Shown here: positions 860-61,900 of the stretch, in pieces
Layout: each line of letters begins with the position of its first letter
Position numbering within the stretch: the first letter of the stretch is position 1
Assembly: GCA_017601225.1 (NCBI GenBank)
Contig: JAFNIX010000004.1
Location: forward strand, 4,507-68,506
Source of the DNA: Candidatus Brockarchaeota archaeon
GTDB taxonomy: Archaea; Thermoproteota; EX4484-205; JAAOZP01
Direction: 5' to 3'
DNA: 64,000 bases
The notes under the pieces: model-generated
What the model saw: only the letters and a program-made list of their open reading frames with translations
Databases searched by the model: none
Told to the model about the DNA's origin: nothing
Position numbers and translations under genes: made by a program

Positions 860-878
860 CCTGCTACTGGAAAGCTTT

Positions 879-3812: not shown

Positions 3813-3816
3813 TTCC

Positions 3817-31974: not shown

Positions 31975-33006
31975 TCAGCGCCTGCAACACTGCAGCGGGT
32001 AACTCCTCAATTTTAAAAAGGTCTTTACATATTCCTCAGCATTTTCAAGAGGCATGTTAACTATTACACCGTAGTATATGAATCCTCCGCCATGAGCCCC
32101 AGCGTGGAGCTGGCTTGCAACATATTCCTCTATCAGGTTTCTAGGAATCTTCTCCAATTTATAGGTGGAGGGTTGAGGTATTAGAGTCACTTTGCTCCCG
32201 TATTTCTCCTTCACAGAGGCGAGAACCATGTTTTCAGCCTCATCCAAAGGGTTTAAGCCGTCGAACCCCGCGTCAACCAATCTGTCTAGAATGAGGTTCA
32301 GATTACCATGGCTGTGGAGGAAAACGTAGGCCCCCTGGTTATGGTAGATTCTGCAAAGCTCACGGTCAAACGGCTCGAGAATTTCCCTGCATAGTTTTGG
32401 CGACAGGAATGGGCCGTTGCGATCCCCCAGGTCGCCTGAAAGCCAGACGCCGTTGACACCTGTTTCCTCTATTATTTGCCTCGCTATTTCCGTAAGCCTC
32501 TTAACTCCGAAACTGAGAATCCTTTTGGCGAAACATGGGTTCATAACCATGTCTGTAAGAAACTTTTTGAAACCTCTTAAAGAGTATGCCGCGAAGCCGA
32601 AGGGGCTCTCGTGACTTATGAAGGTGAAGCGATCACTGTTTTTCTCAACATTCTCCCCGATTCTCTTGACATGTTCCCTGGATAATTCGAACCTTTGTTC
32701 TTCAAGCCTATCAAGATCCTCCGGTTTTAAGATAGCGGGCTTAACCAACTCCCTGTAACCATAATCCACTTTGTAAGAGACACGATGAATATCTCCGAAA
32801 AAGGATTCTAAAAGCATGTGTTCAGAATCCTGCTCTAAAACCCTTGTCTCCGGAATGCTTCCTACACCCACAAGGTCCTGGGGCATCTCTCTGGATCTGA
32901 AAGCTTCTTGAAGCCGTCTGAGGCCGTCTGCAACAGCCCAGAGGCATGGAACCATGTCGGGCTCCTCGTGGTTAAGTGTAGTTAGAACACGATCAATAGG
33001 CTTCAA
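31975..33006 (-). CDS. Uroporphyrinogen-decarboxylase-like (URO-D superfamily) protein
   Basis: 343 aa with a TTG start. It has the N-terminal block LNHEEPDMVP and the block FLHSHGNLNLILDRLVDAGFDGLNPLD. It is closely similar in pattern to the ORF at 49110..50189. There is no H-x-C zinc motif. Confidence 0.6.
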   Translation of the reverse strand: MKPIDRVLTTLNHEEPDMVPCLWAVADGLRRLQEAFRSREMPQDLVGVGSIPETRVLEQDSEHMLLESFFGDIHRVSYKVDYGYRELVKPAILKPEDLDRLEEQRFELSREHVKRIGENVEKNSDRFTFISHESPFGFAAYSLRGFKKFLTDMVMNPCFAKRILSFGVKRLTEIARQIIEETGVNGVWLSGDLGDRNGPFLSPKLCREILEPFDRELCRIYHNQGAYVFLHSHGNLNLILDRLVDAGFDGLNPLDEAENMVLASVKEKYGSKVTLIPQPSTYKLEKIPRNLIEEYVASQLHAGAHGGGFIYYGVIVNMPLENAEEYVKTFLKLRSYPLQCCRR

Positions 33007-34242: not shown

Positions 34243-36018
34243 ATGGCTGGCTGGATGGGCTCCATCGCCGAGGTAGACCTGTCTAGTTCAAAGATAATTT
34301 TTCGCGAATGGAACGAGGAGGAGAAGCTAAGGTTTATCGGTGGAAGAGGAGTAGGAGCTAAAATCATCTATGACAATGTTGGTCCCGAGGTTGACCCTTT
34401 AAGCAAGGATAACGTGCTGGTTTTTGCGGTTGGCCCGCTTACGGCAACAGCTGCGCCGACATCAGGCAGGTTCTCAGTGTCAACAAAATCCCCGTTGACA
34501 GGGACGGTGTTCGACGCGAACTCTGGAGGGTTTTTCGCAACCAAGTTCAAAGCATGCGGTATCGACGTACTCGTTATTCGAGGGGCAGCTCAAAACCCAG
34601 TTATAATATACATGGATGATAAGGACATTCAGGTTCTGGACGGGGAAAAATACTGGGGAATGAGAGTGTTTGAAGCCACGAGCATGTTGACTGAAAAGTT
34701 TGGGAAGGAAGCAAGAGTGGCCTGCATAGGCCCCGCTGGGGAAAACCTTGTGAGGATAGCGGGCATAATGAACGACTACTACAGGTCTGCTGCTAGAGGT
34801 GGGGTGGGTGCAGTAATGGGCTCCAAGAAGCTGAAGGCAATCGTTGCAAAAGGAAGTAAGACAGTTGAAATTGCTGATAAGGAGAATTTTCTCTTTGTAG
34901 TAGGCGAATGCAATAGGGTTTTTGGCCAGAATCCCATCACGAGTAAAGCCCTACCCAGGTTTGGAACGGCGGTTCTCGTAAACCTCATGAACGAGCTCGG
35001 TGTGCTTCCTGCTAAAAACTTTCAAGCAACCTTCCTGCCCGAGGCCAAGAACATTGCCGGCGAGGAAATAACTAGGAGGCTGCTGGTTAAGCCTAAAGCG
35101 TGCTTCGGATGCAGGATCGCGTGCGGCAGGGGAACCCGTTTAGACAGTGTTGAAGGCGAGGGACCAGAGTACGAGACTGTCTACGCACTCGGATCATGCT
35201 GCCTGCTTTGGGATTTGGAGACGATCTGGAGGGCGAACCATTTGTGCAACGACCTGGGGCTGGACACTATTTCAACAGGCGTGACAATAGCCTGCGCGAT
35301 GGAGCTTAGCGAGAAAGGCATGCTGCCTGAGAAGGTAAAATGGGGCGATGGGAATAAGATCGTCGAGCTGATTGAGAAAACAGCTTACAGGAACGGTTTA
35401 GGGAACGACCTTGCAGAGGGCTCGCGTAGGCTAGCCGAGAAATACGGGGATCCAGATGCAGCCATGCAGGTTAAAGGCTTGGAGCTGCCCGCCTACGACC
35501 CGCGGGGGGCTAAGGGACAGGGATTAGCATATGCTACAAGCAATAGGGGAGGCTGCCACCTAAGGTCGTATATGATAGGTCTGGAAATACTCGGGGTTCC
35601 TAAGAGAATAGACAGGTTTTCAACAGTCAACAAAGCCGGCCTAGTAATATATCAGCAGAATCTTTACTCAGCCATGGATACGCTTGTAGCCTGCAGGTTC
35701 ACGGGATACGGGCTTGACGAAGAATACTACTCAAGGATGCTTTCAGCAGCGACCGGTGTAAAGTATACGGCTGAAGACCTCATGCTCGTGGGTGAGAGAA
35801 TATGGAACCTCGAGAGGCTTTTCAACATTAGAGAGGGGTTTAGCAGGAAGGACGATACTCTTCCCAAGAGGCTTTTAAGCGAGCCGTTGACCAGTGGACC
35901 CACCAAGGGGCAGGTTGTTGAGCTTGACCAGATGCTTGAAGAATATTATAGAGCTAGGGGTTGGGATAAAGAGGGCCGTCCAACCAAGAGAACGCTTGAA
36001 AGACTTGGACTAGCCTAG
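34243..36018 (+). CDS. aor: Aldehyde:ferredoxin oxidoreductase family tungstopterin enzyme (second copy)
   Basis: 591 aa. It has the block GSIAEVDLSS..GGRGVGAKIIY, the [4Fe-4S] motif CFGCRIACGR and the C-terminal block VELDQMLEEYYRARGWD. Confidence 0.9.
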   Translation: MAGWMGSIAEVDLSSSKIIFREWNEEEKLRFIGGRGVGAKIIYDNVGPEVDPLSKDNVLVFAVGPLTATAAPTSGRFSVSTKSPLTGTVFDANSGGFFATKFKACGIDVLVIRGAAQNPVIIYMDDKDIQVLDGEKYWGMRVFEATSMLTEKFGKEARVACIGPAGENLVRIAGIMNDYYRSAARGGVGAVMGSKKLKAIVAKGSKTVEIADKENFLFVVGECNRVFGQNPITSKALPRFGTAVLVNLMNELGVLPAKNFQATFLPEAKNIAGEEITRRLLVKPKACFGCRIACGRGTRLDSVEGEGPEYETVYALGSCCLLWDLETIWRANHLCNDLGLDTISTGVTIACAMELSEKGMLPEKVKWGDGNKIVELIEKTAYRNGLGNDLAEGSRRLAEKYGDPDAAMQVKGLELPAYDPRGAKGQGLAYATSNRGGCHLRSYMIGLEILGVPKRIDRFSTVNKAGLVIYQQNLYSAMDTLVACRFTGYGLDEEYYSRMLSAATGVKYTAEDLMLVGERIWNLERLFNIREGFSRKDDTLPKRLLSEPLTSGPTKGQVVELDQMLEEYYRARGWDKEGRPTKRTLERLGLA

Positions 36019-40630: not shown

Positions 40631-41317
40631 ATGACCGGGACCATCATTAAAACTGTTGATCTAAGAAAAACCTACATGCAGGGCAAGATTCCGGTTGAAG
40701 CTCTGCGTGGCGTAAACCTAGAGGTGGGGGAGGGCGAGTTTCTTTCCGTATTAGGTCCTTCGGGAAGCGGAAAGTCGACTCTTCTAAATCTAATAGGGGC
40801 TTTAGACAAGCCTACAGGGGGAAGGCTTTTCATCGAAAACATTGATGTGTCAGCCTTGAATGAGAATCAGCTTGCGGATTTAAGAATGAGAATCGGCTTC
40901 GTCTTCCAATTCTTCAACCTTATTCCAAGGTTTACAGCAAGGGAGAATGTTGAACTACCAATGTCAATAGCCGGCTTAAGCAAGGGTGAGAGGAGAAAAC
41001 GCGCTGAGGAACTCTTGCAGATGGTTGGCTTAGCAAGCAGGATGAACCATAAGCCGACGGAGCTCAGTGGGGGGGAGCAGCAACGCGTCGCAATTGCCAG
41101 AGCCCTGGCCAACAACCCTAGATTCCTACTTATGGATGAACCTACTGGAAACATAGACTCTAAAAATGCTTATGAAATAATAAGGCTTGTAAAGAGGCTT
41201 AACGAGGATAAGGGTGTAACCATAATAATGGTTACTCATGATCAGCGTTTGGCTGAGGAAGCAAAGAGGATAGTGTACATGCTTGACGGCACGATTGTCA
41301 TGGAGAAGGTGAGGTGA
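40631..41317 (+). CDS. MacB/LolD/FtsE-type ABC ATP-binding protein
   Basis: 228 aa. Motifs present: Walker [10 protein letters not shown], signature [15 protein letters not shown] and Walker [11 protein letters not shown]. Confidence 0.9.
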
Positions 41318-41318
41318 A

Positions 41319-42596
41319 ATGAGGATAATAGACATGTTTTCATATGCTTTCAGCGCAATAAGACTGCGGAAGCTCAGAGCCGGTTTAACAACCCTAGGCG
41401 TAGTCATTGGAATAGCAGCCATAGTGGCACTGCTCTCAATAACTCAGGGGCTTCAAGTCGCGATATCCTCGCAGCTTCAGAGGGGTTTTGCAACAGACAC
41501 TCTTATCGTTACCGCAGGCGGGGGTTTGGGTGGCGTGAACGAATTCAACTTATTGGTTAAGGATGCTCAAACAATAAAAGAGATAGGGAACGTTACTGCC
41601 TCGATAGCAGTGATCCAAAGAATATGCTATATAAGAATGCCTTATGGGCAGACACGTCGAGTTACAGTAACTGGCGTCGACTTTGCAGCTTACAAGGAGA
41701 TTTACAGCAGCACGTTCGTAGCCGAGGAGGGGGAGATCCCGTTGAACCCTGAAGACGATTTTATCATTGTAGGAAAGCAGGTGAGCGACCCTTGGAGTAA
41801 CGGAACAATTCTCTGCAGGACTGGCGACGCGTTAGAGATACTTTGGACCAACACGACTACAAGGCCACTTAGAAACGAAACGTATTTAGGTAGAGTAGTG
41901 GCTGTTCTCAGAGAGATCGGGGGATTCACAATCGGTGGTCCCTCAGATAACAGGATATATATTCCGATTTCGAAGGCTCAAAGCTTCTTCGGAACTGAAA
42001 CCTGCGAAATGATAATCGTTAAGTTGAGGAATGACGATAGGGCCACGATTGACAGTGCGGCGAAAGCCATAAGGGAAGCCTTAGGAGGCAGGGTAGCGGT
42101 CACCTCTTCAACAGCCGTCTTAAACATAATTTCAAGCGTCTTCTCAACGATCGAGCTATTCCTAGCCGGGATCGCAGCGATCTCGCTTCTAGTAGCAGGG
42201 ATAGGCATAATGAACATTATGATTGTATCAGTGATGGAACGCACTAGGGAAATAGGCATACTGAAGGCCTTAGGCATGAAGAATCGCCAGGTGCTGCTGA
42301 TATTCTTATGCGAGGCAGCCATAATAGGTCTGCTAGGCACTTTAATCGGAATCGGCGCAGGCTGGAGCTTAGCGCAAATTGTTTTAAGAATATTCGGCTC
42401 CTCGGGTGGAGCAGGCATCATGCGTCAGGGAAACCAAGCGGCAGTGTCAAACGGTATCACGATAACACCGGTCCTAACTCCAACAGTTATACTGGGAGCC
42501 ATCGTCTTCGGCCTAATGGTCACTATGGTATTCGCTCTCTACCCTGCTTGGAAAGCTTCAAAACTTAAACCTGTGGAGGCACTAAGGTATGAGTAG
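41319..42596 (+). CDS. FtsX/MacB-type ABC permease with extracytoplasmic domain
   Basis: 425 aa. The N-terminal block is AIRLRKLRAGLTTLGVVIGIAAIVAL. The FtsX-domain block is SVMERTREIGILKALGMKNRQVLLIFLCEA. Confidence 0.85.
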   Translation: MRIIDMFSYAFSAIRLRKLRAGLTTLGVVIGIAAIVALLSITQGLQVAISSQLQRGFATDTLIVTAGGGLGGVNEFNLLVKDAQTIKEIGNVTASIAVIQRICYIRMPYGQTRRVTVTGVDFAAYKEIYSSTFVAEEGEIPLNPEDDFIIVGKQVSDPWSNGTILCRTGDALEILWTNTTTRPLRNETYLGRVVAVLREIGGFTIGGPSDNRIYIPISKAQSFFGTETCEMIIVKLRNDDRATIDSAAKAIREALGGRVAVTSSTAVLNIISSVFSTIELFLAGIAAISLLVAGIGIMNIMIVSVMERTREIGILKALGMKNRQVLLIFLCEAAIIGLLGTLIGIGAGWSLAQIVLRIFGSSGGAGIMRQGNQAAVSNGITITPVLTPTVILGAIVFGLMVTMVFALYPAWKASKLKPVEALRYE

Positions 42597-43995
42597 GGAA
42601 GTGGCTTCCAGCAGATGTAGAACGAGCTTTGGCATACCCATGGGTAGTCCAACTGGTTTTAAAACCAGGCCAACAGCTACAATAATCATAATACTGGTTA
42701 ATGTTTTAATATACGTCTTAACCTCATACGAGAGTTTCTTCATAGAGACCAGTGACTACTGGGTGAGCATGGGTGGTTTCATCCCCTCGCTTATAGAAAC
42801 CCCATTTCAATGGTATAGGGTTTTCACATCCATGTTTCTCCACGCCGATTTCTTCCACATACTCTTCAACATGTATTTCCTATATGTTTTCGGCAGGGCT
42901 GTTGAAAGCATTCTAGGCAAGTTAAGATTTCTACTCTTATACTTGACAGCGGGGGTTGCAGCATCCATATTCCACACTGCGTTTAGCTTTCTAGGCGGGC
43001 TTTCAGCCTACACGGTTCCTGCGATAGGCGCCTCTGGAGCGATCAGTGGAATACTTGGGGCGTATCTCATACTTTACCCGGGCACATATCTTGTAGTAGG
43101 CTGGGGCTTCATACTCCTCCCAATGTTTTTCAGAATCAAGGCCGCCTACTACATAATTTTTTGGTTCGCAACACAGGTGATTTACGGCTTCACTAGGACT
43201 GCGGGAAGCACGGCAGTGTTTGCTCACGCAGGAGGATTCGTAATGGGAATAGCGTTGCTTCCGCTCCTTGCCGACAAAAGGAGGATCGCCATGTTCAGAA
43301 TGCTACGGGCATACAGCCTCCTCCCCTACTTGATGCCTATCAACCTGAAGACAAGGGGGCTAGGCTTTTTCTCCAAAACCATTATCACAGTTTTCATGGT
43401 TTTGCTTTTAGCTGGAGCAGCCTACGCCTCCTCAGGGTTGGCTGTTCAAGGCACTATTAAGTCAACGACAATCCAATATACGTGTGAGAGCGTTCCCTAT
43501 GTTGACTACGTGGGCATACAGCTGCCCGACTTGGAATCTCAGATTGCCAGTGTATCTCTGGACACTACGAGAATATTGCTAAACAGGTTGAACGCTGCAG
43601 AATTGCTCTACAACACGACTAATTCTAATGGCGAGATCGTTTTAAGCGGCAAAAGTACTGGGCTCCCGGTAATGGTGAGAGTAGGATCAACAGTCAGCAT
43701 TGTCAACGTGAATACGACGATACATTATTTTATTGGAACCTACGATTCCGACGGGTTCCTGAGCAGTGGTGAGGGAAACTTGACAACGCGGGCAGTAAGC
43801 ATCGTCCTATATGGACAGCTATATCGGATTGTGGAGAGCGAACCGATCAACTACGTTTTCAAAGTAGCGTCTCAGACGGTTGATTTAACGGGCCTTACGA
43901 GATACATGGGAGCATTATCGGCATCCACAGCGCTGGCAGCATTATTCGTAGTGGTTAAAAAGGATGGAGAATTAACACTCGTAGAAGAAAGGTGA
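42589..43995 (+). CDS. Rhomboid-family intramembrane serine protease with an extra TM and ~200 aa C-terminal extracytoplasmic extension
   Basis: 468 aa. Motifs present: HADFFHILFNM (H-x3-N), GASGAISG (GxSG catalytic Ser) and AHAGGFVMG (catalytic His). The start overlaps the FtsX permease stop by 8 nt. Confidence 0.8.
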   Translation: MSREVASSRCRTSFGIPMGSPTGFKTRPTATIIIILVNVLIYVLTSYESFFIETSDYWVSMGGFIPSLIETPFQWYRVFTSMFLHADFFHILFNMYFLYVFGRAVESILGKLRFLLLYLTAGVAASIFHTAFSFLGGLSAYTVPAIGASGAISGILGAYLILYPGTYLVVGWGFILLPMFFRIKAAYYIIFWFATQVIYGFTRTAGSTAVFAHAGGFVMGIALLPLLADKRRIAMFRMLRAYSLLPYLMPINLKTRGLGFFSKTIITVFMVLLLAGAAYASSGLAVQGTIKSTTIQYTCESVPYVDYVGIQLPDLESQIASVSLDTTRILLNRLNAAELLYNTTNSNGEIVLSGKSTGLPVMVRVGSTVSIVNVNTTIHYFIGTYDSDGFLSSGEGNLTTRAVSIVLYGQLYRIVESEPINYVFKVASQTVDLTGLTRYMGALSASTALAALFVVVKKDGELTLVEER

Positions 43996-49109: not shown

Positions 49110-50189
49110 ATGGATTCGAGGGAACGAGTGTTAAGAGTCCTAAACCATGAGGAAGCTGACAGGATACCCTTCATAGATTTCCCATGGGGTGAGACCCTGG
49201 AGAGATGGTACAACGAGGGCCTGCCGAGAGGAGTCTCTCTACACGATTATTTCGGCTACGATATTTATTTAATAGGGCCAGACGTAAGCCCCAAGTACGA
49301 TACCATCATACTTGAAGAGAATGATAAGTTTCGAACACACATAGATTCTTGGGGCGTAAAGGTGAAAGCTTGGATTGGGAGGAGTGGCACTCCTCATCCC
49401 GCTGGACCACCATCCGTTTCGACGATTGAGGATTTTAAAGAGAAGCTTGAGCCCCTGCTCGACCCTGAGCTGCCAATCAGGGTTTCAAGCAGTAGATACC
49501 CGTTTAAGAGGGAGCTGGAGGAAGGCATAAGGAGGCTGAAGGAACGGTACGCCGTATTCTGCTCAATAATAGGTCCTTTTGAAACAGCCCGACATATTCT
49601 CGGAGAAAGCGTGGACAAGGTGTTGATCGCGATACATAAAGACCCGGGCCTCGTAAGACATATTTTCAGACACTTAGGCTGGTATTTCTCCAAGATCGTG
49701 GAAACCTATCTTAAGCTTGGTGTTGACGGGCTATGGGTTTGGGAGGATATTGCTTATAGTAAGGGACCTTTCTTCTCCCCCAGGGTTTATGAGGAGGTGG
49801 TGAAGCCTGCGCATGCTCAAATGACGTCCTCCTACAGGTTAAGGAATATGCCGGTCATAATACATACAGACGGTAACGTGAACCTGCTGATACCCAAATT
49901 GATCGAAGCCGGGTTCACAGCCATACAGCCGTTAGAGGTTAAGGCAGGCATGGATGTTGTTGAGCTGAAGGAGAAATACGGAAAAACCCTTTCCTTCATC
50001 GGAAACCTTGACGCTAGGAAGATTGCCAACACTAAGGAAATAGAGGAAGAAATTTCTCGCAAAGTACCCGTCGCAAAAAAAGGAGGGGGATACGTAGCTT
50101 GTTCAGACCATAGCGTGCCGCCCGACGTTTCTTTCAGCGCATTTCAAGAATACATAAGGCTGATCAGAAAATATGGAGTATATACATAG
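49110..50189 (+). CDS. Uroporphyrinogen-decarboxylase-like (URO-D superfamily) protein
   Basis: 359 aa. It has the blocks LNHEEADRIPFIDF and VIIHTDGNVNLLIPKLIEAGFTAIQPLE. It is a paralog of the ORF at 31975..33006. There is no H-x-C zinc motif. Confidence 0.6.
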   Translation: MDSRERVLRVLNHEEADRIPFIDFPWGETLERWYNEGLPRGVSLHDYFGYDIYLIGPDVSPKYDTIILEENDKFRTHIDSWGVKVKAWIGRSGTPHPAGPPSVSTIEDFKEKLEPLLDPELPIRVSSSRYPFKRELEEGIRRLKERYAVFCSIIGPFETARHILGESVDKVLIAIHKDPGLVRHIFRHLGWYFSKIVETYLKLGVDGLWVWEDIAYSKGPFFSPRVYEEVVKPAHAQMTSSYRLRNMPVIIHTDGNVNLLIPKLIEAGFTAIQPLEVKAGMDVVELKEKYGKTLSFIGNLDARKIANTKEIEEEISRKVPVAKKGGGYVACSDHSVPPDVSFSAFQEYIRLIRKYGVYT

Positions 50190-53170: not shown

Positions 53171-55090
53171 CTAGAATGGTTTAGCCGTTATCGCTCTCCC
53201 CATTATGGTGATGGCGACGGCGGCTGCTACTGCGAGCGCGATCCCGCAGAAAGTTCCCGCGATTATCACTCCTCGCCGCACAACCCACTTATCCTTACCC
53301 ATTCTTCTCTCAAGCCATTTTCCTATCAGGGCTCCGATCAATGGTGGAAGCGTGTAAGCAGGAATGTTTTGAAAGCCGTATAGGAAGCCTATTGGGGAGA
53401 AGTATTGTGTCGGGAAACGGGAGGAGGCGACGACCATTATGAAGGACAGGACGCTTGAGATGGCTATCACGTCAACCTTGAAAATCTCGATTGACCTGGA
53501 GACCCATAGGGAGAAGTAGAGGGCTGAAATAGGCCAGGAGTAGCTGGCATAGGGGTAGAAGGCAGACGGTATTGGCGTCATAGCCCAGAATATTGAAACA
53601 TACAGTAGAGATAGGAGAATGGCTATTAGGAAGAATATGAGGTATGCCTTGTAGTAGTCGAGAGGCCTGACCTTCAGCAGCTTAGCCACGTAGACCCTGT
53701 GCGTAATTATTCCAGCGCTACTCGTCACATGCGTTGGAACCACCCATGGGATCACGTCCCCAGGCCTTGTGAAAGAGACGAAGAACGCCTCTCTAATGTA
53801 TGGAATAGTGACAGATAACCCGGTTTCAGCCGTCGCCCTGGCTGTCAATATGCCTTGAATAAACGGTACTATCGTCCAGGTCACCACCCAGACGAACCAT
53901 AGTTCTGGGGCGAGGGAGACTGAAACAAGCAAACCTCCTATAGACCCGGCGGTGATTAAAGCAATTATCCAGCTGAAAGGCAAGTATGATGTTTTAAGCT
54001 GCTCTGCTGAAAGATGCCTCAGAGACAGGATTGCCCTCGCAATGTTTTTGGCGCCGACTGCAAGTATCCCGAGAGCAATCCCGAGTGTTAAACCTACCTG
54101 TGGGCTTGCCCACAGGTCGTAGATTGCTCTCTGCCACCACCATTGGATTGACGCTCCATAGGTCCATTCTCTCTGCCACATGCTGAAGTAGGGGTGGTCT
54201 ATCCTGAGTGCTATAGAGTTTCCGAAAACCCAGACTGCTACAGACCCTATGAACATCCAGACTGCAGCGTTAAACGGGATTAGCCAGCCCACCATGTATT
54301 GGGCAATATCTGTTCCGACCGCGAAAACGGCTCCCGGCAGGATTCTTTCAATCCCCGTTGTCAAGTCCACCCAAGGATACGGTATGACGGTTATGGCCCT
54401 GCCCAAGAAAATCGAGGTTATGTTTGGAATCCCGTAGATGGCGAACTCATAGATGAAGCTTATCACAGCGGCGAACGAGAAGTACATTATTTTCTCAGGT
54501 GTTCTTTCAGTAAGGGTTGAGATTGCTTGGTAGTCTATGGGTGCAACTGGGAACGGGAGCTTCTCTATCTCTATGTAAAGCATGTTCGTTATGAAGGAAA
54601 CACCGTAGTCTATCATCAGCACGCAAACGTTAACAGCTAGAGAGATCGATATCGGGATTATCCAGTCTGGGGAGAGGAAAGTCCTGTGAAGCGGACCGTA
54701 GCTTCCCAGCTCAGGAACATACCATGTTGGAAGCTTTTCAGCAATACCGTAGAGGATGGTGTATGGGGCAGACCTATAGTAATACCTTATGAGGAAATCT
54801 CCGAACATTCCTCCGCCGACGAACCATAGGGCTATGGCTTGAAGCATGAAGTATATTATGTAAGCTTCTTGGGACGTTATGTATCTCTTGACGAGCCTCC
54901 CGGCCTCTGTGAAAAGAAGTATTGTAACGAAAACCGGGATGAACCTTTCGGTCCCGCCTAAAGAGCCGACGGCCCATCCTAAATAGATTATCGCTGGCAC
55001 GATTACCACAAGCCCAAATAATACTGCGGAGACCGATACGATCGTGAGCCCAGGGATGAAGGCTTCTTTTTCACGTGCAGCCTCTTCCAT
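53171..55090 (-). CDS. Module protein A2: large polytopic membrane protein, paralog of A1
   Basis: 639 aa. The motif YIEIEKLPFPVAPIDYQAISTLTERT aligns with FIEVEDLPFPTAQVGADAILTLSERT of A1. PYPWVDLTTGIERILPGAVFAVGTDI aligns with PIPWVDLTSRIEPFLPGASFGVATDI. The start overlaps the stop of C2 (TAATG). Confidence 0.6.
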   Translation of the reverse strand: MEEAAREKEAFIPGLTIVSVSAVLFGLVVIVPAIIYLGWAVGSLGGTERFIPVFVTILLFTEAGRLVKRYITSQEAYIIYFMLQAIALWFVGGGMFGDFLIRYYYRSAPYTILYGIAEKLPTWYVPELGSYGPLHRTFLSPDWIIPISISLAVNVCVLMIDYGVSFITNMLYIEIEKLPFPVAPIDYQAISTLTERTPEKIMYFSFAAVISFIYEFAIYGIPNITSIFLGRAITVIPYPWVDLTTGIERILPGAVFAVGTDIAQYMVGWLIPFNAAVWMFIGSVAVWVFGNSIALRIDHPYFSMWQREWTYGASIQWWWQRAIYDLWASPQVGLTLGIALGILAVGAKNIARAILSLRHLSAEQLKTSYLPFSWIIALITAGSIGGLLVSVSLAPELWFVWVVTWTIVPFIQGILTARATAETGLSVTIPYIREAFFVSFTRPGDVIPWVVPTHVTSSAGIITHRVYVAKLLKVRPLDYYKAYLIFFLIAILLSLLYVSIFWAMTPIPSAFYPYASYSWPISALYFSLWVSRSIEIFKVDVIAISSVLSFIMVVASSRFPTQYFSPIGFLYGFQNIPAYTLPPLIGALIGKWLERRMGKDKWVVRRGVIIAGTFCGIALAVAAAVAITIMGRAITAKPF

Positions 55091-58000
55091 TATTTCTCAC
55101 CCACTAGGCTACGCTCCCTAGCCATACGTATGTATTTCTCCCGGTCCTCCGGATTGAGGACATTCCATATCAGCATCTGCTTCCTCACCTCATCGATAAA
55201 GGGGTAGTTGAACCTGACCCATGAGTCGTAGGGCCCGGACACCCTAGTTAGATTCATTGAGATGAGGAAGTTCTGCTCCGTCTTACTCTTCAATATCACT
55301 ATGTTCATATCCTGCTTTATGTTCTGCTCGAACGGTGCCAGCCAGACTCTCGACTTTACAGCAATCCCAGACTCTATCTTGTTAACCTCAACGCTTTCAA
55401 CGGTGAAAACCCCCGCCCGCTCTATCCTCTTGTTCCAGAGATACTCGTGGAGGAAAACAGCCATTCCCGCAGCCCTATCATCCTCTTTTATGCGGAAAGG
55501 TATCGGTATGTCCCATGAGTCTCCCTTAGGCTTAGTCTGGAGACGCCACTTCCTCTCTAATGACGGGGTCACTGTGACGGAAACCTTGTAGAACGGGTAG
55601 AGCGATGCTGCCAGAACCAGCACGATCACCAGCCCGACAGCTATCATGACGAATGACGACGTGTAGTTAACAGGGAGGTTTATCAGGCCTATTTTCCTCG
55701 TTAAGTACGAGGCGGAGATACCCCCGAGATAGCCCGTCATCGATCCTACGATAGCGTATATGATGTTCTCACCGAAGAACATTAAGCCCACTTGAACCGG
55801 TGCTAGGCCTAGGCTGCTGTATATGTAGCCCTCCCGTATTCTCTCCATGACTCCTCCCAGAATTGTCGACATAGTTATCAGCCCCGCAATGATCATGGGT
55901 ATTAGAATGAACTGGAAGCCGAACAGCGAGATAACGTTCTCCTTGGAGAACCGGTAGACGGTGCCGTTATAAGTCAGATAGATGTTTAACCCTTCGAAGG
56001 CGGAGAAAACATCGCCGCACTTCTCGTAGAGTTCCTCGAGCACCATCCCGTCTGCAGGTATGAAAACACTCGTTAAACATGATTCTGGAATCAGTTCAAC
56101 TAGGCCAGCCGGCACGAATATTACGGATCCTGGGCTTAACGCCGCCTCAGCACGGGGAGGCGTTCTCTCGTTTGAAAGAACGTATGTGTCCATGGGTAGG
56201 ACGTCGACGAAGCCGTCCGCATCCTTCACGTAGGCTAGAACTGCAGTAGTGTTAAGTATGCCTGTTACTTTTAAGCGGAAACCGTTAACCCAGACATATT
56301 CGCCTGTCTTCACCCCCAGGCTTTCCGCAAGACTGTTAGGCAACAGTGCTGAGAAAACCTCTTCATCTTTAAACATGGATCCTTCTAACAGTATTTTTTC
56401 GAACTCGTTGAAAGATGCTTTCAACTCCACAGAGCTTATTCCTACAGCAGCGTAGATCAAAGCCTTACTTTTCTCAGAGGATATGACTATTGTGCCAGCA
56501 GTCCCCTCTCCAGGAGTAGAAGGAAGATAAACCCAGTACCTCGGAGCGTAAAGCGTCTTGCCTGATATGTAGATTGACACTAGGTCAATCAGCTTCCTGT
56601 TTAACGGCGCGAAGTTGGCTGTTCTCAGCAACACCCCGTTGTAAGTAACCTCGGTGGGAGTCGGAGTGACTCTTAAAGCCCTTATCTCCGTCACAGAAGT
56701 CAGAGAAGAAAGTGAGAAGCTTATGATCACTATGCACAGCATCGTTAAAACTGTTCTAAACTTACGTTTCTTCAAGTTGCCTATTCCTATAGATACGGCT
56801 GAAAACGAAACGTCGAATCCGCTTCTCTCGAGGAAGTGTGCACCAAGAACTTCTCTCCTCAACCTCGAAAGCCCTGTGGAGAAGTTGGAGAATAGGAAGA
56901 ACATTACTGGAATAACTAAGGCAACTATCAGTGTTCCTATGAATATTGCAGGCACGTTTACCGCCAGCCCGAAACCCGGGTGGAACACTGTTAAAAGCAA
57001 CGCCACGGACAGCGCTACCGCAAGAGTAAGGGCGACGCTTCTAAAGCCGCTGCTCAAATTGTAAACCAAGGATGAAAACAGCAGGATGAAGGGTATTGCT
57101 AAAGCGAATACGAGAATTATGCTCGTAACCGCGTCGCGGACAACGCTCAAAGAGCTTTGGTAAGCCTTGTTTGAGAACCCCCAAGCCATTAAAGCGCTCG
57201 TCAAGAACCCAGTGTAATCCTTTTTTGAAGCCATTTGAAGAAGTGTCTGGTTGAACATTATCGCATAATTCAGATTCTCCATCGTCTTTGGGTCCAGAAC
57301 TTGAATATCTGCTTGAGCCAGATACCTGCCATACGCTAATGTCAACATCTCCATGAACATGCTAGGCATTCCGCCCTTTACCAGCAGCCTGTCCCCCTCC
57401 CTAGCGAAATAATACCCGTATCCATCCTGGTTCTGCAGGGTCACATTAGTATAGACTGCAACCGTTTTAGCCATAGATGTGCTTTTAACAACGAAGCCGA
57501 ACCTGGTGCGGGGCGGGGCGTAAACCTGTGCAACCGATAGGATGGGGTCGAACTCGTAGCCGAATGAGTCGAGAACGGAGTACCCAGGTATCTGCATCAC
57601 CATCACGCTTATCGTTAGCGGGGTCTCGTAGCCACCGTAATTCCTGAGCTGCGCTGAATAAGCATTCGTGGTTCCAAACATTGAGCTTGGAGAGACTGCA
57701 GCCTGCAGAGTGTCCGGGTCGGTTAAATCGAACATGACAGCGCTCCCACATTTAAACACAACGTTCCTAGTGAATTGTTCAGGCGAAACTATCGTTACGC
57801 TTGAAGGGTATGTTCCGGCACCATGCTGCCCCCTGTCTGGAGCATAGATGATTCGCCCCTCATCGTCAATCAGATAACTCTGTATTGGGGTTTGCAACGC
57901 GGTTGTCGCCTCAGGATATGGCCTTAGACCCCTGAACACTGCGAAGCCTAAAGAATCCGATTTCGAAAACATTAGCGTGAACGGGTCCAACGTGCTTCCC

Positions 58001-59607
58001 ACTGTGACGAAAGCGTTTGGAACAGGGCTGTATAGGCCCGGCGTAGTTGGGTCGTATTCGACCACTTCAACCCTTAACACCGTGAATCCGACTCCAGTAT
58101 AGGTTTCACCCATCCTTAACGGTCTTAAACCCGCCCAGCTACCCGAATACCATTCTTCAACAGGAGCCTTCAACAAGTCGAACAGGATCTGGAATGTTAG
58201 CTGTGCTTGAGGTATAACGTTCTGGAAATCGATAAACTCCAGCTTGTCAGACGGGGTGAACACACGATACCTGAAGTCGTCGAAAGTAATTATTCCGAGC
58301 CCGATGCTGTTTGCTAGCTCAAAGGGCTCCATTTCAAGAATATGCTTGAAGGCAAGGCCCTTCTGAAAACCGGGGCTGGCCGAGTCATAAGCAATACCGT
58401 ATAGGCCGGGATATAGGTTGCTGGTTAAAACCTTTTCGCCATAGCTTGGGAAAGATTTAATGAAAGATTTAATTGAATTTGTAAAAAATAATCGGAGATC
58501 TCTGAACCTGCCTGCAATATATTGAGTATTGATGGAGTACATCATGCCGCTGTAAACCAGGTTTAAATGCGGGCTTCCTGAGCTGATCTTAATATCTATA
58601 ACGAGATAGGGGAAGACCGTGCTGCCTATCTCAGAATTGTTAAAGTAGAATTGTTCCACGAAGCTTCTCGCACCGGCTAGGGCCTGCCAATGTCCAGACA
58701 TCGCTATAAAAAGCACTGTGTATCTGGGCGTGAAACCCTGTTGCTTTAAAGCCCTGATGAATTCAAGCATAACTGAGACTCCTATGGCTTCATCAGCCCC
58801 CGGAGCAAACCCTGGGATAATCGACCCCGAGTCATAGTTTACAGTTATGATGATTACTTTAGACGGGTCTTCGACACCCCTCATTTCTCCGATCACGTTC
58901 ACAGCCTCGACTTCTCTCCACTCCATACCGTTGAAAAGCTCCGCATCCGGATTGGTTCTAGCGATTTCTCTGAGCTGAGACGCTTCCTGGCCTGCTACGT
59001 ATATTCTTGGAGTAACTAGTGGGATGGAGGATATTTTGCTTAACGCTTCAAAGCGATTCGTATCCCCGTCCTCTAGAAAAACGATGCCTGATGCGCCAAG
59101 CTTAACCATGTCTACCCATGCAGACCCGGAGTTAAACTCAAGGAGGACTATGCTACCATTCACATCAAGCCCATTAAGATCCCCCGGAGTACCGTGGCCC
59201 GCGTAAATAAGCTTTCCAGAAGCTTTTTTTAAACCCGTGGCTACGACATTAGGGTAGAGCCCATAGGCCTTAATCACCTTGCCGCCTACCTTCATGTATG
59301 AGCCGGAGTCGTAGGGGACCAGCACCGTGTAGTTGAAAAAACTGACTTTCAACCCGAAGCCGTTAAACTCTTCCGCTATGATTCGTGCCGCCTGGAGAGA
59401 ACCCGGGTAGCCTGTGAACCTTGACTTTATTGACGAAAACAACACTACATAATCTCTTATCCTGTCGGCTGAAACCACTGGGACTTCAAGCTGGTTTAAA
59501 AAGTTTTTTTCTTCAACAGCGTCACGCTCTCCCTCAGCGATTAGGATGGAGGCAGTCAGCAATATTAAAGCCACAACAAACAGATTTTTTCTTCGAACAG
59601 TTATCAT
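55090..59607 (-). CDS. Module protein C2: paralog of C1 (PA/M28-like ectodomain + MacB/FtsX permease + conserved tail)
   Basis: 1505 aa. M28-like blocks: VNVIGEMRG..IIITVNYDS..APGADEAIG..SGHWQALAGARSF. FtsX TM1 block: NLKKRKFRTVLTMLCIVIISF. FtsX domain block: VMERIREGYIYSSLGLAPVQVGLMFFGENIIY. The tail block TPSLERKWRLQTKPKGDSWDIPIPF matches TPSVERVWKLKTKPQGDVWDIPLPF of C1. Confidence 0.7.
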   Translation of the reverse strand: MITVRRKNLFVVALILLTASILIAEGERDAVEEKNFLNQLEVPVVSADRIRDYVVLFSSIKSRFTGYPGSLQAARIIAEEFNGFGLKVSFFNYTVLVPYDSGSYMKVGGKVIKAYGLYPNVVATGLKKASGKLIYAGHGTPGDLNGLDVNGSIVLLEFNSGSAWVDMVKLGASGIVFLEDGDTNRFEALSKISSIPLVTPRIYVAGQEASQLREIARTNPDAELFNGMEWREVEAVNVIGEMRGVEDPSKVIIITVNYDSGSIIPGFAPGADEAIGVSVMLEFIRALKQQGFTPRYTVLFIAMSGHWQALAGARSFVEQFYFNNSEIGSTVFPYLVIDIKISSGSPHLNLVYSGMMYSINTQYIAGRFRDLRLFFTNSIKSFIKSFPSYGEKVLTSNLYPGLYGIAYDSASPGFQKGLAFKHILEMEPFELANSIGLGIITFDDFRYRVFTPSDKLEFIDFQNVIPQAQLTFQILFDLLKAPVEEWYSGSWAGLRPLRMGETYTGVGFTVLRVEVVEYDPTTPGLYSPVPNAFVTVGSTLDPFTLMFSKSDSLGFAVFRGLRPYPEATTALQTPIQSYLIDDEGRIIYAPDRGQHGAGTYPSSVTIVSPEQFTRNVVFKCGSAVMFDLTDPDTLQAAVSPSSMFGTTNAYSAQLRNYGGYETPLTISVMVMQIPGYSVLDSFGYEFDPILSVAQVYAPPRTRFGFVVKSTSMAKTVAVYTNVTLQNQDGYGYYFAREGDRLLVKGGMPSMFMEMLTLAYGRYLAQADIQVLDPKTMENLNYAIMFNQTLLQMASKKDYTGFLTSALMAWGFSNKAYQSSLSVVRDAVTSIILVFALAIPFILLFSSLVYNLSSGFRSVALTLAVALSVALLLTVFHPGFGLAVNVPAIFIGTLIVALVIPVMFFLFSNFSTGLSRLRREVLGAHFLERSGFDVSFSAVSIGIGNLKKRKFRTVLTMLCIVIISFSLSSLTSVTEIRALRVTPTPTEVTYNGVLLRTANFAPLNRKLIDLVSIYISGKTLYAPRYWVYLPSTPGEGTAGTIVISSEKSKALIYAAVGISSVELKASFNEFEKILLEGSMFKDEEVFSALLPNSLAESLGVKTGEYVWVNGFRLKVTGILNTTAVLAYVKDADGFVDVLPMDTYVLSNERTPPRAEAALSPGSVIFVPAGLVELIPESCLTSVFIPADGMVLEELYEKCGDVFSAFEGLNIYLTYNGTVYRFSKENVISLFGFQFILIPMIIAGLITMSTILGGVMERIREGYIYSSLGLAPVQVGLMFFGENIIYAIVGSMTGYLGGISASYLTRKIGLINLPVNYTSSFVMIAVGLVIVLVLAASLYPFYKVSVTVTPSLERKWRLQTKPKGDSWDIPIPFRIKEDDRAAGMAVFLHEYLWNKRIERAGVFTVESVEVNKIESGIAVKSRVWLAPFEQNIKQDMNIVILKSKTEQNFLISMNLTRVSGPYDSWVRFNYPFIDEVRKQMLIWNVLNPEDREKYIRMARERSLVGEK

Positions 59608-59742
59608 TATTGAAAGTTTATATCAAGACTGATTTAAACTTTACGGCTTTAAAACCCATTCTCAAACGGAATTTTCTCAAAAGCATATGGAGGGCCCTAG
59701 AAACGAGGTTTAATCTGATACAGAGATAAATAAGCCGTATGG

Positions 59743-59750
59743 TTCCATAA
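59743..59750 (-). terminator. T8 tract downstream of B2 (possible archaeal oligo-T terminator)
   Basis: AAAAAAAA on the plus strand gives TTTTTTTT on the coding strand, 23 nt after the B2 stop at 59773. It lies within the 165-nt spacer before C2. Confidence 0.35.
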
Positions 59751-59772
59751 ACAAAAAAAAGAGGGTTTGAAT

Positions 59773-61755
59773 CTAATAGCCTGTCGGTCCTACGGATATT
59801 CCTCCAGTTGCAGCGTTCACTCCCATGATTATCGTAGCCATGAGAGTGACACCAACCATGAAGCCTATGGCTACCGGTACTCCAACCTCTTCGTAAGCCT
59901 TTGCCCCGAATACTTTAAGCGTTATTAGTTTGAGAATCCATGCGACTCCAGCGTTTATCAGCCACATTCCGGAGTAGAAGAATAGCGCGTATGGGCTGAA
60001 GAAGAACCATGCGAACCTAGCTCTCAGGAAGAAGAGGATCCCGACGACAACTATAGCCAGCGGAAACATCCACCAGTGGAAGTCCGCAGGTGGTGCTGAA
60101 TCAGCCACCACCCACGGTACCTGGAACCCAGTGATATTCGCACCGCTGCCGAGCCCCCAGGCTTTCAACTGGCCTATTCCAGTGCCGTAGATTATGTAGA
60201 CGGCAACAGGAACGCCTATCAGCACCGTTATCAGGATTCCTAGGATATGCGACTTGAGAATATCTGTCTCCTTCACCTTAGCCGGCTCAACCATAGTATA
60301 GGTTGAGGTGTAGGCCCAAGCAGTGTGCGTGTTCTGGTGAAGAACTCCACCCATGTTTGCAGATATGCTGACGCCAGCCATCGTGGCCCATGCGGATTGA
60401 GTTTTCGCAGCCGCCCCGCTTGCTGGGAACAGGCCTATTCCAGTACCTACTCCCCAAGCCAAGAATCTAGCTGGAACAGCATCTCCTCCCGCCACCCATG
60501 TTCCCGTTGCCCCGCAGACAGCAACCATACCAGTCGTGTACAGGAACCACACTATGAAGCCGACCAGCAGCGGGAGAATGTTGGCTCCGAATATTACCCA
60601 TAAGATTAGCCAGAGAAGCCACGTGGCCGCGAAGCCGTACCATACGAGCGAGTTTGGAAGCTCACCGGGGGCAAACTCCTTCTTCTTAACGCTTTCAGCA
60701 TAGGTCTTATAGCCGAAGACTATTGTCCAGATTCCTATCGCTAACGGTGCCCAATAGTAGCTGAAGTTTAGCCATGGGAAGGGACCTGTGCCAGCCGGGT
60801 TTGTGTTAGGTGTTATTACTCCAGTGTTGACGAGGATCAGCGGGAACAAGATTTGGAATATGAATAGCCAGATGACTATTGAGGAAAGAATGTCCAAGGG
60901 AGCAAGATACATTATCGCGGCATCTGCAGGTATGAACATCCACCAGGATTGTATCGTGTTTTGAGATATTGAGCTCATAAGGTCGGCGAACCACTGCTGG
61001 TAGAACTGGCCGAAGGCGAAGAACACAGTCGTGAACTTAATAATGTAGTTTAAAGCTCCCAGTACCCCTATTGCGCACCCCAGTAGTATTCCCGCTATGA
61101 ACGGGAGCTTCTTCATGTACTGTGTGAAGGTTCCTTTCTGATGCTGTGAAAGCATTTCATTAATCGGTATCATCATGGGGAACGGGAGCCTTTCTTTTTT
61201 AATCAGCTGCAGCCTGATTAATGCTGCCTGGAAAACCATCATTAGGCACCAAATAATTATCATTATCATCCAGAACGCTAGGTATGGGAGCAACCTGCCC
61301 AGTGGTACGGCTGCTCCTCCAGTCCAAGCGGGGGCGATCAGATCATAGTCGCCCGGGGTCCACAGCGGTGGGTAATACTTTAGCAGGGCCTCTACATTCG
61401 GGTTAGTCTTAACCAGGTATGTTCCTGCGAATATGAATTGTAGGAAGGCGCCGATGACGAACGGGCTGTCTGCCGTTATGAACGCTATTGTAGTGATTAC
61501 TGCGATCTCCTGGACTGTCAGAGCCTTCATGAACAGGCTTACCAGAACGAGTATGAAAACGAGTCCGTACGGTGGGTATATTGCTGACCCGACTCTGCCT
61601 GCGAAAACAGGTTCCAAGCTTATTCCTAGACCCCACCAGGTAGCTATGTTTGCGAAGAGCCCTATTATACCGAAGACTATCGCAAGGATTATTGCTCTAA
61701 TGGTAAAACCTGTTTTTAACTCTTCTATGACTGAGACAGTCTTTGTCTCACTCAA
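59773..61755 (-). CDS. Module protein B2: large polytopic membrane protein, paralog of B1
   Basis: 660 aa with a TTG start. It carries the motif LIKKERLPFPMMIPINEML. The C-terminal block KVFGAKAYEEVGVPVAIGFMVG aligns with RIGGSKLYEEQGVPLAIGIFLG of B1. Confidence 0.6.
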   Translation of the reverse strand: MSETKTVSVIEELKTGFTIRAIILAIVFGIIGLFANIATWWGLGISLEPVFAGRVGSAIYPPYGLVFILVLVSLFMKALTVQEIAVITTIAFITADSPFVIGAFLQFIFAGTYLVKTNPNVEALLKYYPPLWTPGDYDLIAPAWTGGAAVPLGRLLPYLAFWMIMIIIWCLMMVFQAALIRLQLIKKERLPFPMMIPINEMLSQHQKGTFTQYMKKLPFIAGILLGCAIGVLGALNYIIKFTTVFFAFGQFYQQWFADLMSSISQNTIQSWWMFIPADAAIMYLAPLDILSSIVIWLFIFQILFPLILVNTGVITPNTNPAGTGPFPWLNFSYYWAPLAIGIWTIVFGYKTYAESVKKKEFAPGELPNSLVWYGFAATWLLWLILWVIFGANILPLLVGFIVWFLYTTGMVAVCGATGTWVAGGDAVPARFLAWGVGTGIGLFPASGAAAKTQSAWATMAGVSISANMGGVLHQNTHTAWAYTSTYTMVEPAKVKETDILKSHILGILITVLIGVPVAVYIIYGTGIGQLKAWGLGSGANITGFQVPWVVADSAPPADFHWWMFPLAIVVVGILFFLRARFAWFFFSPYALFFYSGMWLINAGVAWILKLITLKVFGAKAYEEVGVPVAIGFMVGVTLMATIIMGVNAATGGISVGPTGY

Positions 61756-61900
61756 ACTCTTTTCACCGTGTAAAATAGTTTTTACGTCTTTATAAAGTTT
61801 TAGGGTTATAAAAACATTGGACTAGCCATTTTCAACCAAAAAGACGCTATTTAAAGAGGCTGTTGCTGCATGCTTATATGTTCACGATGAGCAGTAAAAT

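Follow-up and report, generated by a model that had tools for sequence, protein, structure and literature searches.

Why should an archaeal genome keep two complete and very different versions of the same three membrane protein genes, and what might the products of these genes do together? The question is raised by a 64,000-nucleotide stretch of DNA from a Candidatus Brockarchaeota archaeon (GenBank assembly GCA_017601225.1, contig JAFNIX010000004.1, positions 4,507 to 68,506 of the forward strand), referred to here as the window, in which three genes, called B, C, and A in the order in which they are read, occur twice. The answer that we favor, and hold with moderate confidence, is that copy 2 is an intact B-C-A module, that the two copies represent ancient paralogous lineages, and that the module works in receptor-assisted secondary uptake, with the copies differing in substrate.

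The paralogy as such is ordinary; it is the module that is unusual, widespread, and probably mis-annotated. The folds of its components are known, and partial labels exist for them, namely DUF6785 and DUF6784, "FtsX-like permease", and PADLOC CARF_m8-LolE_TM. In the literature, we found no experimental study of the B-C-A module, no account of OPT-fold permeases conservedly associated with an ATPase-less MacB-type pseudo-peptidase protein, and no account of multiple ancient lineages of such a module in one genome.

The genes of the two copies, in window coordinates, are as follows.

59773–61755, minus strand: B2, 660 amino acids (aa) from a TTG start; a polytopic membrane protein of the DUF6785 family and a distant OPT-superfamily paralog of A.
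55090–59607, minus strand: C2, 1505 aa; M28-like head and FtsX permease module.
53171–55090, minus strand: A2, 639 aa; a permease with the OPT/Yellow-Stripe fold.
55088–55092, minus strand: TAATG, in which the stop codon of C2 shares one base with the start codon of A2.
21658–23742, minus strand: B1, 694 aa; both DUF6785 and DUF6784 matched in Pfam.
17035–21597, minus strand: C1, 1520 aa; M28-like head and FtsX, both matched in Pfam.
15165–17042, minus strand: A1, an OPT-like permease; likely gene with an ATG at 17042, within an open reading frame (ORF) of 15165–17099.

Two copies of one module and their ancestry

The three ORFs of copy 2 lie where the original prediction had placed them and agree with copy 1 in order and strand, and each encoded protein can be aligned end to end with its counterpart. 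In full-length BLASTP comparisons, B2 and B1 are 25% identical (E = 2e-27), C2 and C1 27% (E = 7e-159), and A2 and A1 29% (E = 3e-70), a similarity that, judged from the protein sequences, is far above chance. All three pairs are highly significant, and the possibility that the proposed paralogs share no significant similarity is thereby removed. The motifs that had been picked out by eye, APGADEAIG, TPS[VL]ER.W..TKP.GD.WDIP.PF, E[DK]LPFP, and PWVDLT..IE..LPGA, are all seen in these alignments. A recent duplication or an assembly repeat is ruled out both by the 25–29% protein identity and by the separate set of orthologs that belongs to each copy.

The junction of C and A had been described as the same in both copies, and this holds only in part: the two genes overlap in each copy, but the overlaps differ. 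In copy 2, the TAATG was confirmed by reading the sequence directly, and the sharing of a base between stop and start codon suggests translational coupling. The junction of copy 1 is not TAATG; there, the likely ATG of A1 (17042–17040), which is preceded by GGAGG, overlaps the TAG stop codon of C1 (17037–17035) by 8 nt, as ATGAATAG.

Inspection by eye of the minus strand around B2 showed a run of eight T residues immediately past the B2 stop codon and an AT-rich TTTAAA box ∼30 nt ahead of the C2 ATG, both within 59608–59772, as well as a TTTATAAA box ∼35 nt and a GGTGA ∼7 nt ahead of the TTG start of B2, within 61756–61800. Because of the T run after B2 and the boxes ahead of the C2 and B2 starts, B2 and C2-A2 are suggested to be separate transcription units. 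No tRNA and no Rfam match were found in the 64-kb window.

The nearest relatives of C2, with 93–100% identity, are encoded by metagenome-assembled genomes of Thermoproteota and Candidatus Brockarchaeota. The remoter family extends among the archaea to Bathyarchaeia, Thermofilaceae, Desulfurococcaceae, Thermoproteales, and Micrarchaeia, and among the bacteria to Armatimonadota/Fervidibacter, Fimbriimonadales, Latescibacterota, Planctomycetota/Brocadiia, and Gemmatimonadaceae. ORFs were called in 84 loci and labeled with profiles, the ORF starts being possibly over-extended, and the arrangement of the three genes was counted as follows.

A adjoining C: archaea, 36/40 modules; bacteria, 24/34 (downstream).
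A directly downstream of C: archaea, 31/37; bacteria, 24/34.
B directly upstream of C: archaea, 23/35; bacteria, 4/32.
B within the flank, in loci with at least 8 kb on each side: archaea, 15/15; bacteria, 5/16.
A within the flank, in loci with at least 8 kb on each side: archaea, 15/15; bacteria, 10/16.

The orders A-C-B, C-A-B, and B-A-C were found as well. Gaps between C and A are mostly from −30 to +100 bp, and the two genes overlap in 26 of 57 cases. When ∼1,100 non-nested neighbor ORFs were clustered in an unbiased manner, only C, A, and B were strongly recurrent (in 92, 72, and 53 loci, respectively), and the clustering gave no conserved partner gene beyond A and B. Based on the adjacency counts together with this clustering, the core of the module is the C-A pair, and B is a frequent third member, above all in archaea.

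Some loci depart from this general plan (numbers preceded by L denote individual loci). Four Bathyarchaeota/Thermoproteota loci (L015, L016, L017, and L056) have two B genes of 669 aa each, ∼2.3–2.9 kb apart, upstream of a single C-A pair; B can thus be duplicated within one module. In addition, ORFs of more than 2,000 aa that carry a B-like label and overlap the C coordinates were called in Latescibacterota (L050, 9982–16479) and in Gemmatimonadaceae (L062, 10228–16482), and these may be either fusions of C with a B/A-like permease or frame artifacts of the ORF calling.

Whether the three genes were duplicated together, a point that the original prediction had left to phylogeny, was addressed with a neighbor-joining tree for each of the three proteins, built from 34 complete modules. 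The same clades recur in all three trees, and the pairwise distance matrices of the three proteins are correlated with r = 0.90–0.93 (Spearman 0.63–0.73); the three genes evolve and are inherited as a unit. Copy 2 belongs to a clade (L001, L005–L008, L010, and L079) that has 100% bootstrap support in the A, B, and C trees alike. Copy 1 falls into a broad clade of Bathyarchaeia-type modules, with 80% support in the C tree (together with L083 and L020) and 87% in the A tree; C1 and A1 are 35% and 38% identical to their L083 homologs, compared with 27% for C2 and 29% for A2. Orthologs elsewhere are 89–99% identical to copy 2, or 45–72% in the deeper members of its clade, and 58–92% identical to copy 1. 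Moreover, related genomes hold modules of further clades, as in Brockarchaeota GD2_1 (L006 and L073), Kamch4342 (L007 and L017), and SRP231805 (L009 and L056).

Since each copy has its own orthologs and relatives carry other clades, the split between copy 1 and copy 2 either is ancient and predates these lineages or involves horizontal transfer; one copy may have been acquired in the latter way, because the family spans the boundary between archaea and bacteria. The view of the two copies as an old duplication is thus upheld insofar as they are ancient (25–29% identity), intact, true paralogous modules with the gene order kept, but the event is not peculiar to this genome, given the separate clades and orthologs.

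Architecture of the three proteins

The A2 protein was modeled with AlphaFold on 42 homologs, giving a predicted local distance difference test (pLDDT) score of 89.8 and a predicted TM-score (pTM) of 0.89. Its one significant match in Foldseek is barley Yellow Stripe 1 (HvYS1; 7wst/7wsr), with E = 3.3e-10, a probability of 1.00, and a TM-score of 0.68/0.72 over 667 columns. At the level of sequence, A1 comes slightly under the cutoff of the Pfam OPT profile (E = 1.1e-5; 24.8 bits, cutoff 25.8), and A2 has no match to it; across the families, this profile (PF03169) is matched at E ≤ 0.01 by 9 of 37 A members (best, 7e-18) and by 1 of 31 B members. Regarding B, the Pfam DUF6785 profile is matched by B2 with 51.4 bits (cutoff 25) and by B1 with 126.8 bits, and B1 also matches DUF6784 with 53.9 bits; B2 has no separate DUF6784 match, but its C-terminus can be aligned with the DUF6784 region of B1. 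Among the 31 B family members, all have DUF6785 and 25 have DUF6784.

When the 37-member A alignment was compared with the 31-member B alignment in hhalign, the probability was 99.95% (E = 8e-38, 587 columns). A and B are ancient, distant paralogs of each other with the OPT fold, and the module therefore holds an internal duplication that had gone unnoticed in the original prediction. Classical OPT transporters have the signature motifs NPG and K[IVL]PPR. The first of these occurs in only 2 of 37 A and 0 of 31 B members and the second in no member of either family; instead, A and B have in common a motif E[KRDE]LP[FY]P. Sequence-profile searches of the PDB with A and B gave no match.

The C2 protein consists, from N- to C-terminus, of a membrane anchor, an extracellular PA/M28-like head, a beta-rich middle, three transmembrane (TM) helices, a MacB-type FtsX module, and a cytoplasmic tail. 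Hydropathy places the TM segments at aa 8–26, 830–906 (three), 952–970, 1226–1244, and 1318–1336, which leaves an extracellular region of ∼800 aa and a tail of ∼160 aa. Its three main parts are listed below.

58198–59445, minus strand: extracellular PA/M28-like head, ∼aa 55–470, with degenerate metal and catalytic sites.
55582–57120, minus strand: membrane region, aa 830–1342; three extra TM helices and a MacB/LolCE-type four-helix permease with a periplasmic core domain.
55093–55575, minus strand: cytoplasmic tail domain, aa 1345–1505; predicted beta-alpha-beta4-alpha2, family-specific.

The head matches Pfam Peptidase_M28 with 36.3 bits in C2 and 49.7 bits in C1 (cutoff 21.3), and it was aligned by phmmer to the PA-domain aminopeptidase 2ek8 and the Aeromonas aminopeptidase 1amp (E = 7e-9 to 8e-11). 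The residues of the active site were compared in a 30-member C alignment, with the numbering of the Aeromonas enzyme.

H97 (first zinc ligand): N257 in C2, Y in C1; His in many family members, also S, K, and F.
D117 (bridging Asp): kept as D272 in C2 and kept in C1; D, E, T, S, K, R, H, and N across the family.
E151 (catalytic Glu): H306 in C2, H in C1; family consensus SGHWQ.
E152 (zinc ligand): W307 in C2, Y in C1; family consensus SGHWQ.
D179 (zinc ligand): K in C2, with a D two residues before, and D in C1; mostly D in the family.
H256 (zinc ligand): T of TPxD in C2 and C1, placed by eye, as this position lies outside every alignment.

The canonical co-catalytic zinc site and the catalytic Glu are thus intact in neither C2 nor C1, and because H97, E151, and E152 are replaced, the head is probably not a canonical peptidase. 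Non-catalytic relatives of M28 enzymes include the transferrin receptor and nicastrin, and the C head also has a weak match to the lobe of nicastrin (E = 0.018). An active M28 peptidase was for these substitutions rejected as the default reading of the head. Invariant residues of the C head include R63, R201, D259, S262, E282, R314, and E427.

The membrane half is recognized by Pfam FtsX in C2 (43.4 bits) and C1 (51.3 bits; cutoff 25.5), and MacB_PCD is annotated in many C homologs. An AlphaFold model of C2 aa 790–1505 (mean pLDDT 82.4) matched LolC/E, MacB, HrtB, YtrF, and BceB in Foldseek with a probability of 1.00 and E down to 1e-11, and the isolated periplasmic domain of MacB (3ftj) gave a TMt of 0.61. 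As part of the four-helix FtsX domain of C, the extracytoplasmic core domain sits between TM1 and TM2. On the cytoplasmic side, the TM2–TM3 motif ERxREIxIYSSLGLxP is strongly conserved in the C family, and the C2 model has a short helix at the position expected for the coupling helix.

No nucleotide-binding domain was found in C with Pfam, and a Pfam scan of the neighbors found no ATPase gene at copy 2. Across 82 non-redundant loci, an ATP-binding cassette (ABC) ATPase of some kind lies within 10 kb of C in only 13, at variable positions. Upstream of copy 1, two genes were identified with Pfam.

25502–26290, minus strand: ABC ATPase.
23850–25496, minus strand: 12TM_1 membrane protein.

This pair was considered as the motor of C and rejected as a core part of the module, since it is confined to the closest relatives of copy 1 (both genes are absent in the 58–60% orthologs L086 and L088), is decayed in the copy 1 ortholog L089, which lacks the ATPase and has 12TM_1 broken into two ORFs, and has no counterpart at copy 2. 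The two genes are adjacent in the window and are separated by an insertion of ∼5 kb in L085 (∼852–5993) and L091 (∼1601–5990), which, together with the state of L089, suggests mobile insertion and decay of an ATPase/12TM_1 transporter. Elsewhere in the window, at 40631–43995 on the plus strand, there is a canonical MacB-type ABC pair, made up of a 228-aa ATPase (40631–41317) and a 425-aa MacB_PCD/FtsX permease. The next gene, the start of which overlaps the permease stop, encodes a rhomboid-domain protein of 468 aa; it is unusual for an operon to couple a rhomboid protease to type VII ABC proteins.

The tail of C2 has no match in Pfam and no sequence match in the PDB. Foldseek gave weak but recurrent matches to START/Bet v 1/SRPBCC folds (PYL/RCAR, Hyp-1, and polyketide cyclases), with E = 2e-3 to 7e-3. 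When the tail by itself was searched against 1.84 billion cluster representatives, 1,315 proteins were matched at E ≤ 1e-3, of which 776 reached E ≤ 1e-10, these being counts of clusters at 50% identity. In the best 150 matches listed, the domain occupies the C-terminal end or a place close to it, mostly in proteins of ∼1,450–1,580 aa; the shorter matches are probably fragments. Pfam scans of shorter tail-bearing proteins for other heads on this chassis gave only MacB_PCD and FtsX. Overall, the C family is large, and one architecture prevails in it.

Gene neighborhoods and the proposed function

The window forms an island of genes for carbohydrate and central-carbon metabolism. It encodes a glycoside hydrolase (GH) family 38 alpha-mannosidase, GH2, GH4, and GH43-like proteins, a BNR protein, and a PIG-L deacetylase, in addition to xylose-isomerase-like TIM barrels, a GFO/IDH/MocA oxidoreductase, aldolases, aldehyde:ferredoxin oxidoreductases, URO-D-like proteins, and an MFS transporter; no binding-protein-dependent ABC importer was found among the ORFs of the window scanned against Pfam. 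Outside the window, a homolog of aldose 1-epimerase (3ty1, E = 5.7e-39) directly follows A in nine independent Fervidibacter/Armatimonadota loci, and other modules adjoin genes for GH3, GH42-like, GH127, CBM4_9, TrmB, FGGY kinase, GFO/IDH/MocA, and AP_endonuc_2 (xylose-isomerase-like TIM) proteins. The neighbor genes point consistently, if in modest numbers, to sugars rather than peptides.

The surroundings of the two copies are not alike, and copy 1 has one further gene next to it.

14074–15108, minus strand: D, 344 aa, directly downstream of A1.

D is kept downstream of A1 in six loci with copy 1 orthologs (L085, L087, L088, L089, L090, and L092), with 70–85% identity, and it accompanies only the copy 1 lineage; copy 2 has no D. 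The protein has no Pfam or PDB match, and by eye it has the motifs GNELREY and IISETG, of the kind seen in clan-A glycosidases, and no obvious signal peptide; a clan-A glycosidase-like nature is possible on this basis. With the neighbors being different and D being present at copy 1 only, it is plausible, as had been proposed from the retention of both copies, that these are subfunctionalized toward different substrates.

A scheme of receptor-assisted uptake would bring these elements together. C would probably form a dimer, by analogy with other single-module MacB-type permeases, and its head would be a membrane-anchored receptor or gate that captures a nutrient outside the cell. C would then pass the nutrient to the co-translated permease A, and to B where this is present, and the two permeases would import it by means of the membrane potential, which drives import in characterized OPT transporters. 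Regulation of the system may fall to the cytoplasmic tail, as a possible sensor of a small ligand. Judging from the gene neighborhoods, the substrates would be sugars or glycosides rather than peptides, and copy 1 and copy 2 would serve different ones.

Several points weigh against this scheme. The neighborhood counts are modest, with GFO/IDH/MocA genes, for example, in 10–12 of 82 loci, and these figures have no genome-wide background. The OPT transporters known to us handle peptides, glutathione, and metal chelates, not sugars, and every characterized MacB-type permease of which we are aware needs an ATPase and acts on outer-leaflet or periplasmic substrates, usually in export or extraction. 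The conserved coupling-helix motif between TM2 and TM3 could serve for docking of an ATPase encoded elsewhere. The His at the position of the catalytic Glu is itself conserved in the family (SGHWQ), and the head may have an unconventional catalytic activity. Contact between C, A, and B is proposed from their genetic linkage, and their co-inheritance could merely reflect a shared pathway. Finally, the placement of B1 is not settled in the B tree, and the deep nodes of the neighbor-joining trees are poorly supported.

Some of these points are at home in a different explanation, in which the module is a machine for envelope biogenesis or export. C would be a type VII ABC mechanotransmitter that works with a remote ATPase and extracts or presents a lipid-linked or surface molecule, such as a lipoprotein, a glycolipid, or an S-layer component, and A and B would be exporters or flippases. 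The structures closest to the membrane half of C, those of LolCDE, MacB, HrtBA, YtrEF, and BceAB, are all ATP-driven systems with outer-leaflet or periplasmic substrates, and C has both the conserved TM2–TM3 motif and, in the model, a short helix at the place of the coupling helix. The START/SRPBCC-like matches of the tail would suit a lipid-like ligand, and a MacB-type ATPase is available elsewhere in the window, at 40631–41317. We nevertheless consider this explanation unlikely, because no ATPase is linked to C across ∼80 loci, whereas the permease and ATPase genes of MacB-type systems are normally adjacent, and the genomic context is catabolic rather than one of envelope biosynthesis. Furthermore, all characterized proteins with the OPT fold known to us are importers, and several diverged copies per genome fit nutrient transporters better than an essential envelope machine.

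A second explanation follows the current names of the proteins. Here, the M28 head would be an extracellular peptidase that cleaves proteins or peptides, and the OPT permeases A and B would import the products. It agrees with the Peptidase_M28 scores above the cutoff in both C1 and C2, with the closeness of A1 to the OPT cutoff, and with names such as "M28 family peptidase" and "OPT/YSL family transporter" at NCBI. Extracellular peptidases have also been predicted for Brockarchaeota (PMC8065059), and in Fervidibacter sacchari, a cultured carrier of the module whose strain PD1 has loci of the C-A-epimerase type, an M28 peptidase and an OPT superfamily transporter detected by proteomics were interpreted as evidence of peptide catabolism (PMC11535203). 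The difficulty is that the first zinc-binding His is lost from both copies, that the Glu-Glu pair has given way to other residues in C1, C2, and the family consensus alike, that the bridging Asp varies across the family, that the recurrent neighbors are sugar enzymes rather than peptidases or enzymes of amino acid catabolism, and that the NPG and KIPPR motifs are missing from A and B. In our judgment, this makes a peptide importer of this kind distinctly improbable.

The remaining explanation starts from the defense database PADLOC. Its profile CARF_m8--CARF_LolE_TM matches C1 (E = 7e-74) and C2 (E = 2e-52), and CARF_m8--CARF_Beta-galactosidase_LolE_TM matches both proteins as well. In a part-wise scan, the TM/FtsX region of C corresponded to profile positions 77–548 and the proximal tail to positions 551–657 of 810; nothing in C corresponds to the final ∼150 positions of either profile, C2 ending ∼30–50 residues past the matched part, and the heads of C are unmatched. 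By profile similarity, C shares its chassis with the CARF_m8-LolE_TM proteins. For the tail as a CARF domain, there was no Pfam or PDB match and no CARF structure among the 50 Foldseek matches listed, and the tail was modeled as beta-alpha-beta4-alpha2, unlike a Rossmann fold. Tandem repeats, and hence a CRISPR array, are absent from the window, B, A, D, and 12TM_1 have no PADLOC match, no CRISPR-Cas or other defense family surfaced among the window ORFs scanned with Pfam, and the annotated neighbors in the window are metabolic, not defense genes. A defense system was thus rejected as a candidate, the PADLOC matches being to the chassis only. A membrane-bound signaling or defense sensor of the CARF_m8-LolE_TM type, in which the tail would bind a second messenger resembling a cyclic nucleotide and control the membrane part, would agree with the CARF_m8 scores of C1 and C2, which are far above a generic FtsX match and place C in the same chassis family, but it is highly improbable in view of the unmatched distal part of the profile, the modeled tail, which has START-like matches and is not Rossmann-like, and the lack of a CRISPR array and of defense families noted above.

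Receptor-assisted uptake remains the reading that we prefer, and it has a bolder form, which we put forward tentatively and regard as rather unlikely in full: a new class of transporter, in which an ATPase-less MacB-type scaffold with a pseudo-peptidase receptor head and a ligand-sensing tail feeds oligosaccharides or glycosides to OPT-fold permeases. If true, carbohydrates would have to be added to the substrates of the OPT superfamily, the "mechanotransmission" architecture of MacB would have been reused without ATP hydrolysis, and the several diverged copies in a genome would carry the bulk of glycan import in Brockarchaeota, Bathyarchaeia, and hyperthermophilic Armatimonadota.

There is also a consequence for annotation. 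The proteins of the module are currently named "M28 peptidase", "FtsX-like permease", "OPT oligopeptide transporter", or "hypothetical", and such names are used in metabolic reconstructions as evidence of protein degradation, as in the Fervidibacter study. Should the head lack peptidase function and sugars be the cargo of the module, these inferences would be wrong for the C-A-B family, which is large and occurs in presumed key carbon degraders of hot springs and sediments (Brockarchaeota, Bathyarchaeia, and Fervidibacter). An ATPase-free MacB-type module tied to a secondary-transporter fold would, if true, also be a new way to build an uptake system.

Some further genes of the window deserve mention in their own right. 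Four URO-D-family genes (uroporphyrinogen decarboxylase/MtaA-like methyltransferase fold) are located at 9237–10700, 26408–27385, 31975–33006, and 49110–50189, and URO-D homologs recur near B-C-A modules elsewhere, in 19 loci, 10 of them non-redundant. A DeoC/LacD-type aldolase with a fused C-terminal 2x[4Fe-4S] ferredoxin domain (29211–30455, minus strand) adjoins a second DeoC-like gene and is placed between aldehyde:ferredoxin oxidoreductases at 27398–29227 and 34243–36018. Lastly, two overlapping ORFs on the minus strand (3817–5097, 426 aa, and 5094–6254, 386 aa), located between the GH38 and GH2 genes, have marginal Pfam matches to DUF4838, DUF4015, and GH42 (E = 0.03–0.09) and no homolog in any locus examined; they may be unclassified glycosidases.

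Comparison with known systems

The PADLOC CARF_m8 models resemble C over the TM/FtsX region and the proximal tail, and they differ in the distal ∼150 positions and in the beta-galactosidase part, both of which are unmatched; conversely, the M28-like head of C is not in the profiles, and C has no defense-gene context. The PA-domain M28 aminopeptidases (2ek8 and 1amp) can be aligned with the head, but the His, the Glu-Glu pair, and, by eye, the last His are replaced, a conserved His-Trp stands at the place of the Glu-Glu pair in the C family, and the head is fused to a permease module. A parallel is offered by the transferrin receptor and nicastrin, which likewise have a membrane-anchored M28-like ectodomain lacking the full catalytic set.

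With the type VII ABC systems (MacB, LolCDE, FtsEX, and HrtBA), C shares the four-helix FtsX module, the periplasmic core between TM1 and TM2, and the conserved motif of the TM2–TM3 loop. It departs from these in what precedes the permease module, namely an extracellular head of 800 aa and three extra TM helices, and in a cytoplasmic tail of 160 aa unseen in solved relatives. Unlike every characterized MacB-type system, C has neither a fused nor a linked ATPase, and its obligate genetic partner is a protein with a secondary-transporter fold.

As for the OPT/YSL family, A2 has the overall fold of HvYS1, and A and B are polytopic proteins of ∼640–700 aa as well. The differences are that A2 has no Pfam OPT match and A1 is barely below the cutoff, that NPG and KIPPR are missing from A and B, that the context of the A/B modules suggests sugar substrates, and that a diverged pair genetically tied to a giant MacB-like protein is unreported for any characterized OPT transporter.

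In functional terms, the nearest analogy is with the TRAP and TTT transporters, which are binding-protein-dependent secondary transporters, i.e., an extracytoplasmic receptor feeds a permease driven by an ion gradient, without an ATPase. The logic proposed for the B-C-A module, that of a receptor with an ion-driven permease and no ATPase, is the same, but there is no kinship of sequence or fold: here, the receptor would be a membrane-integral protein of 1,500 aa, and the permease one with the OPT fold.

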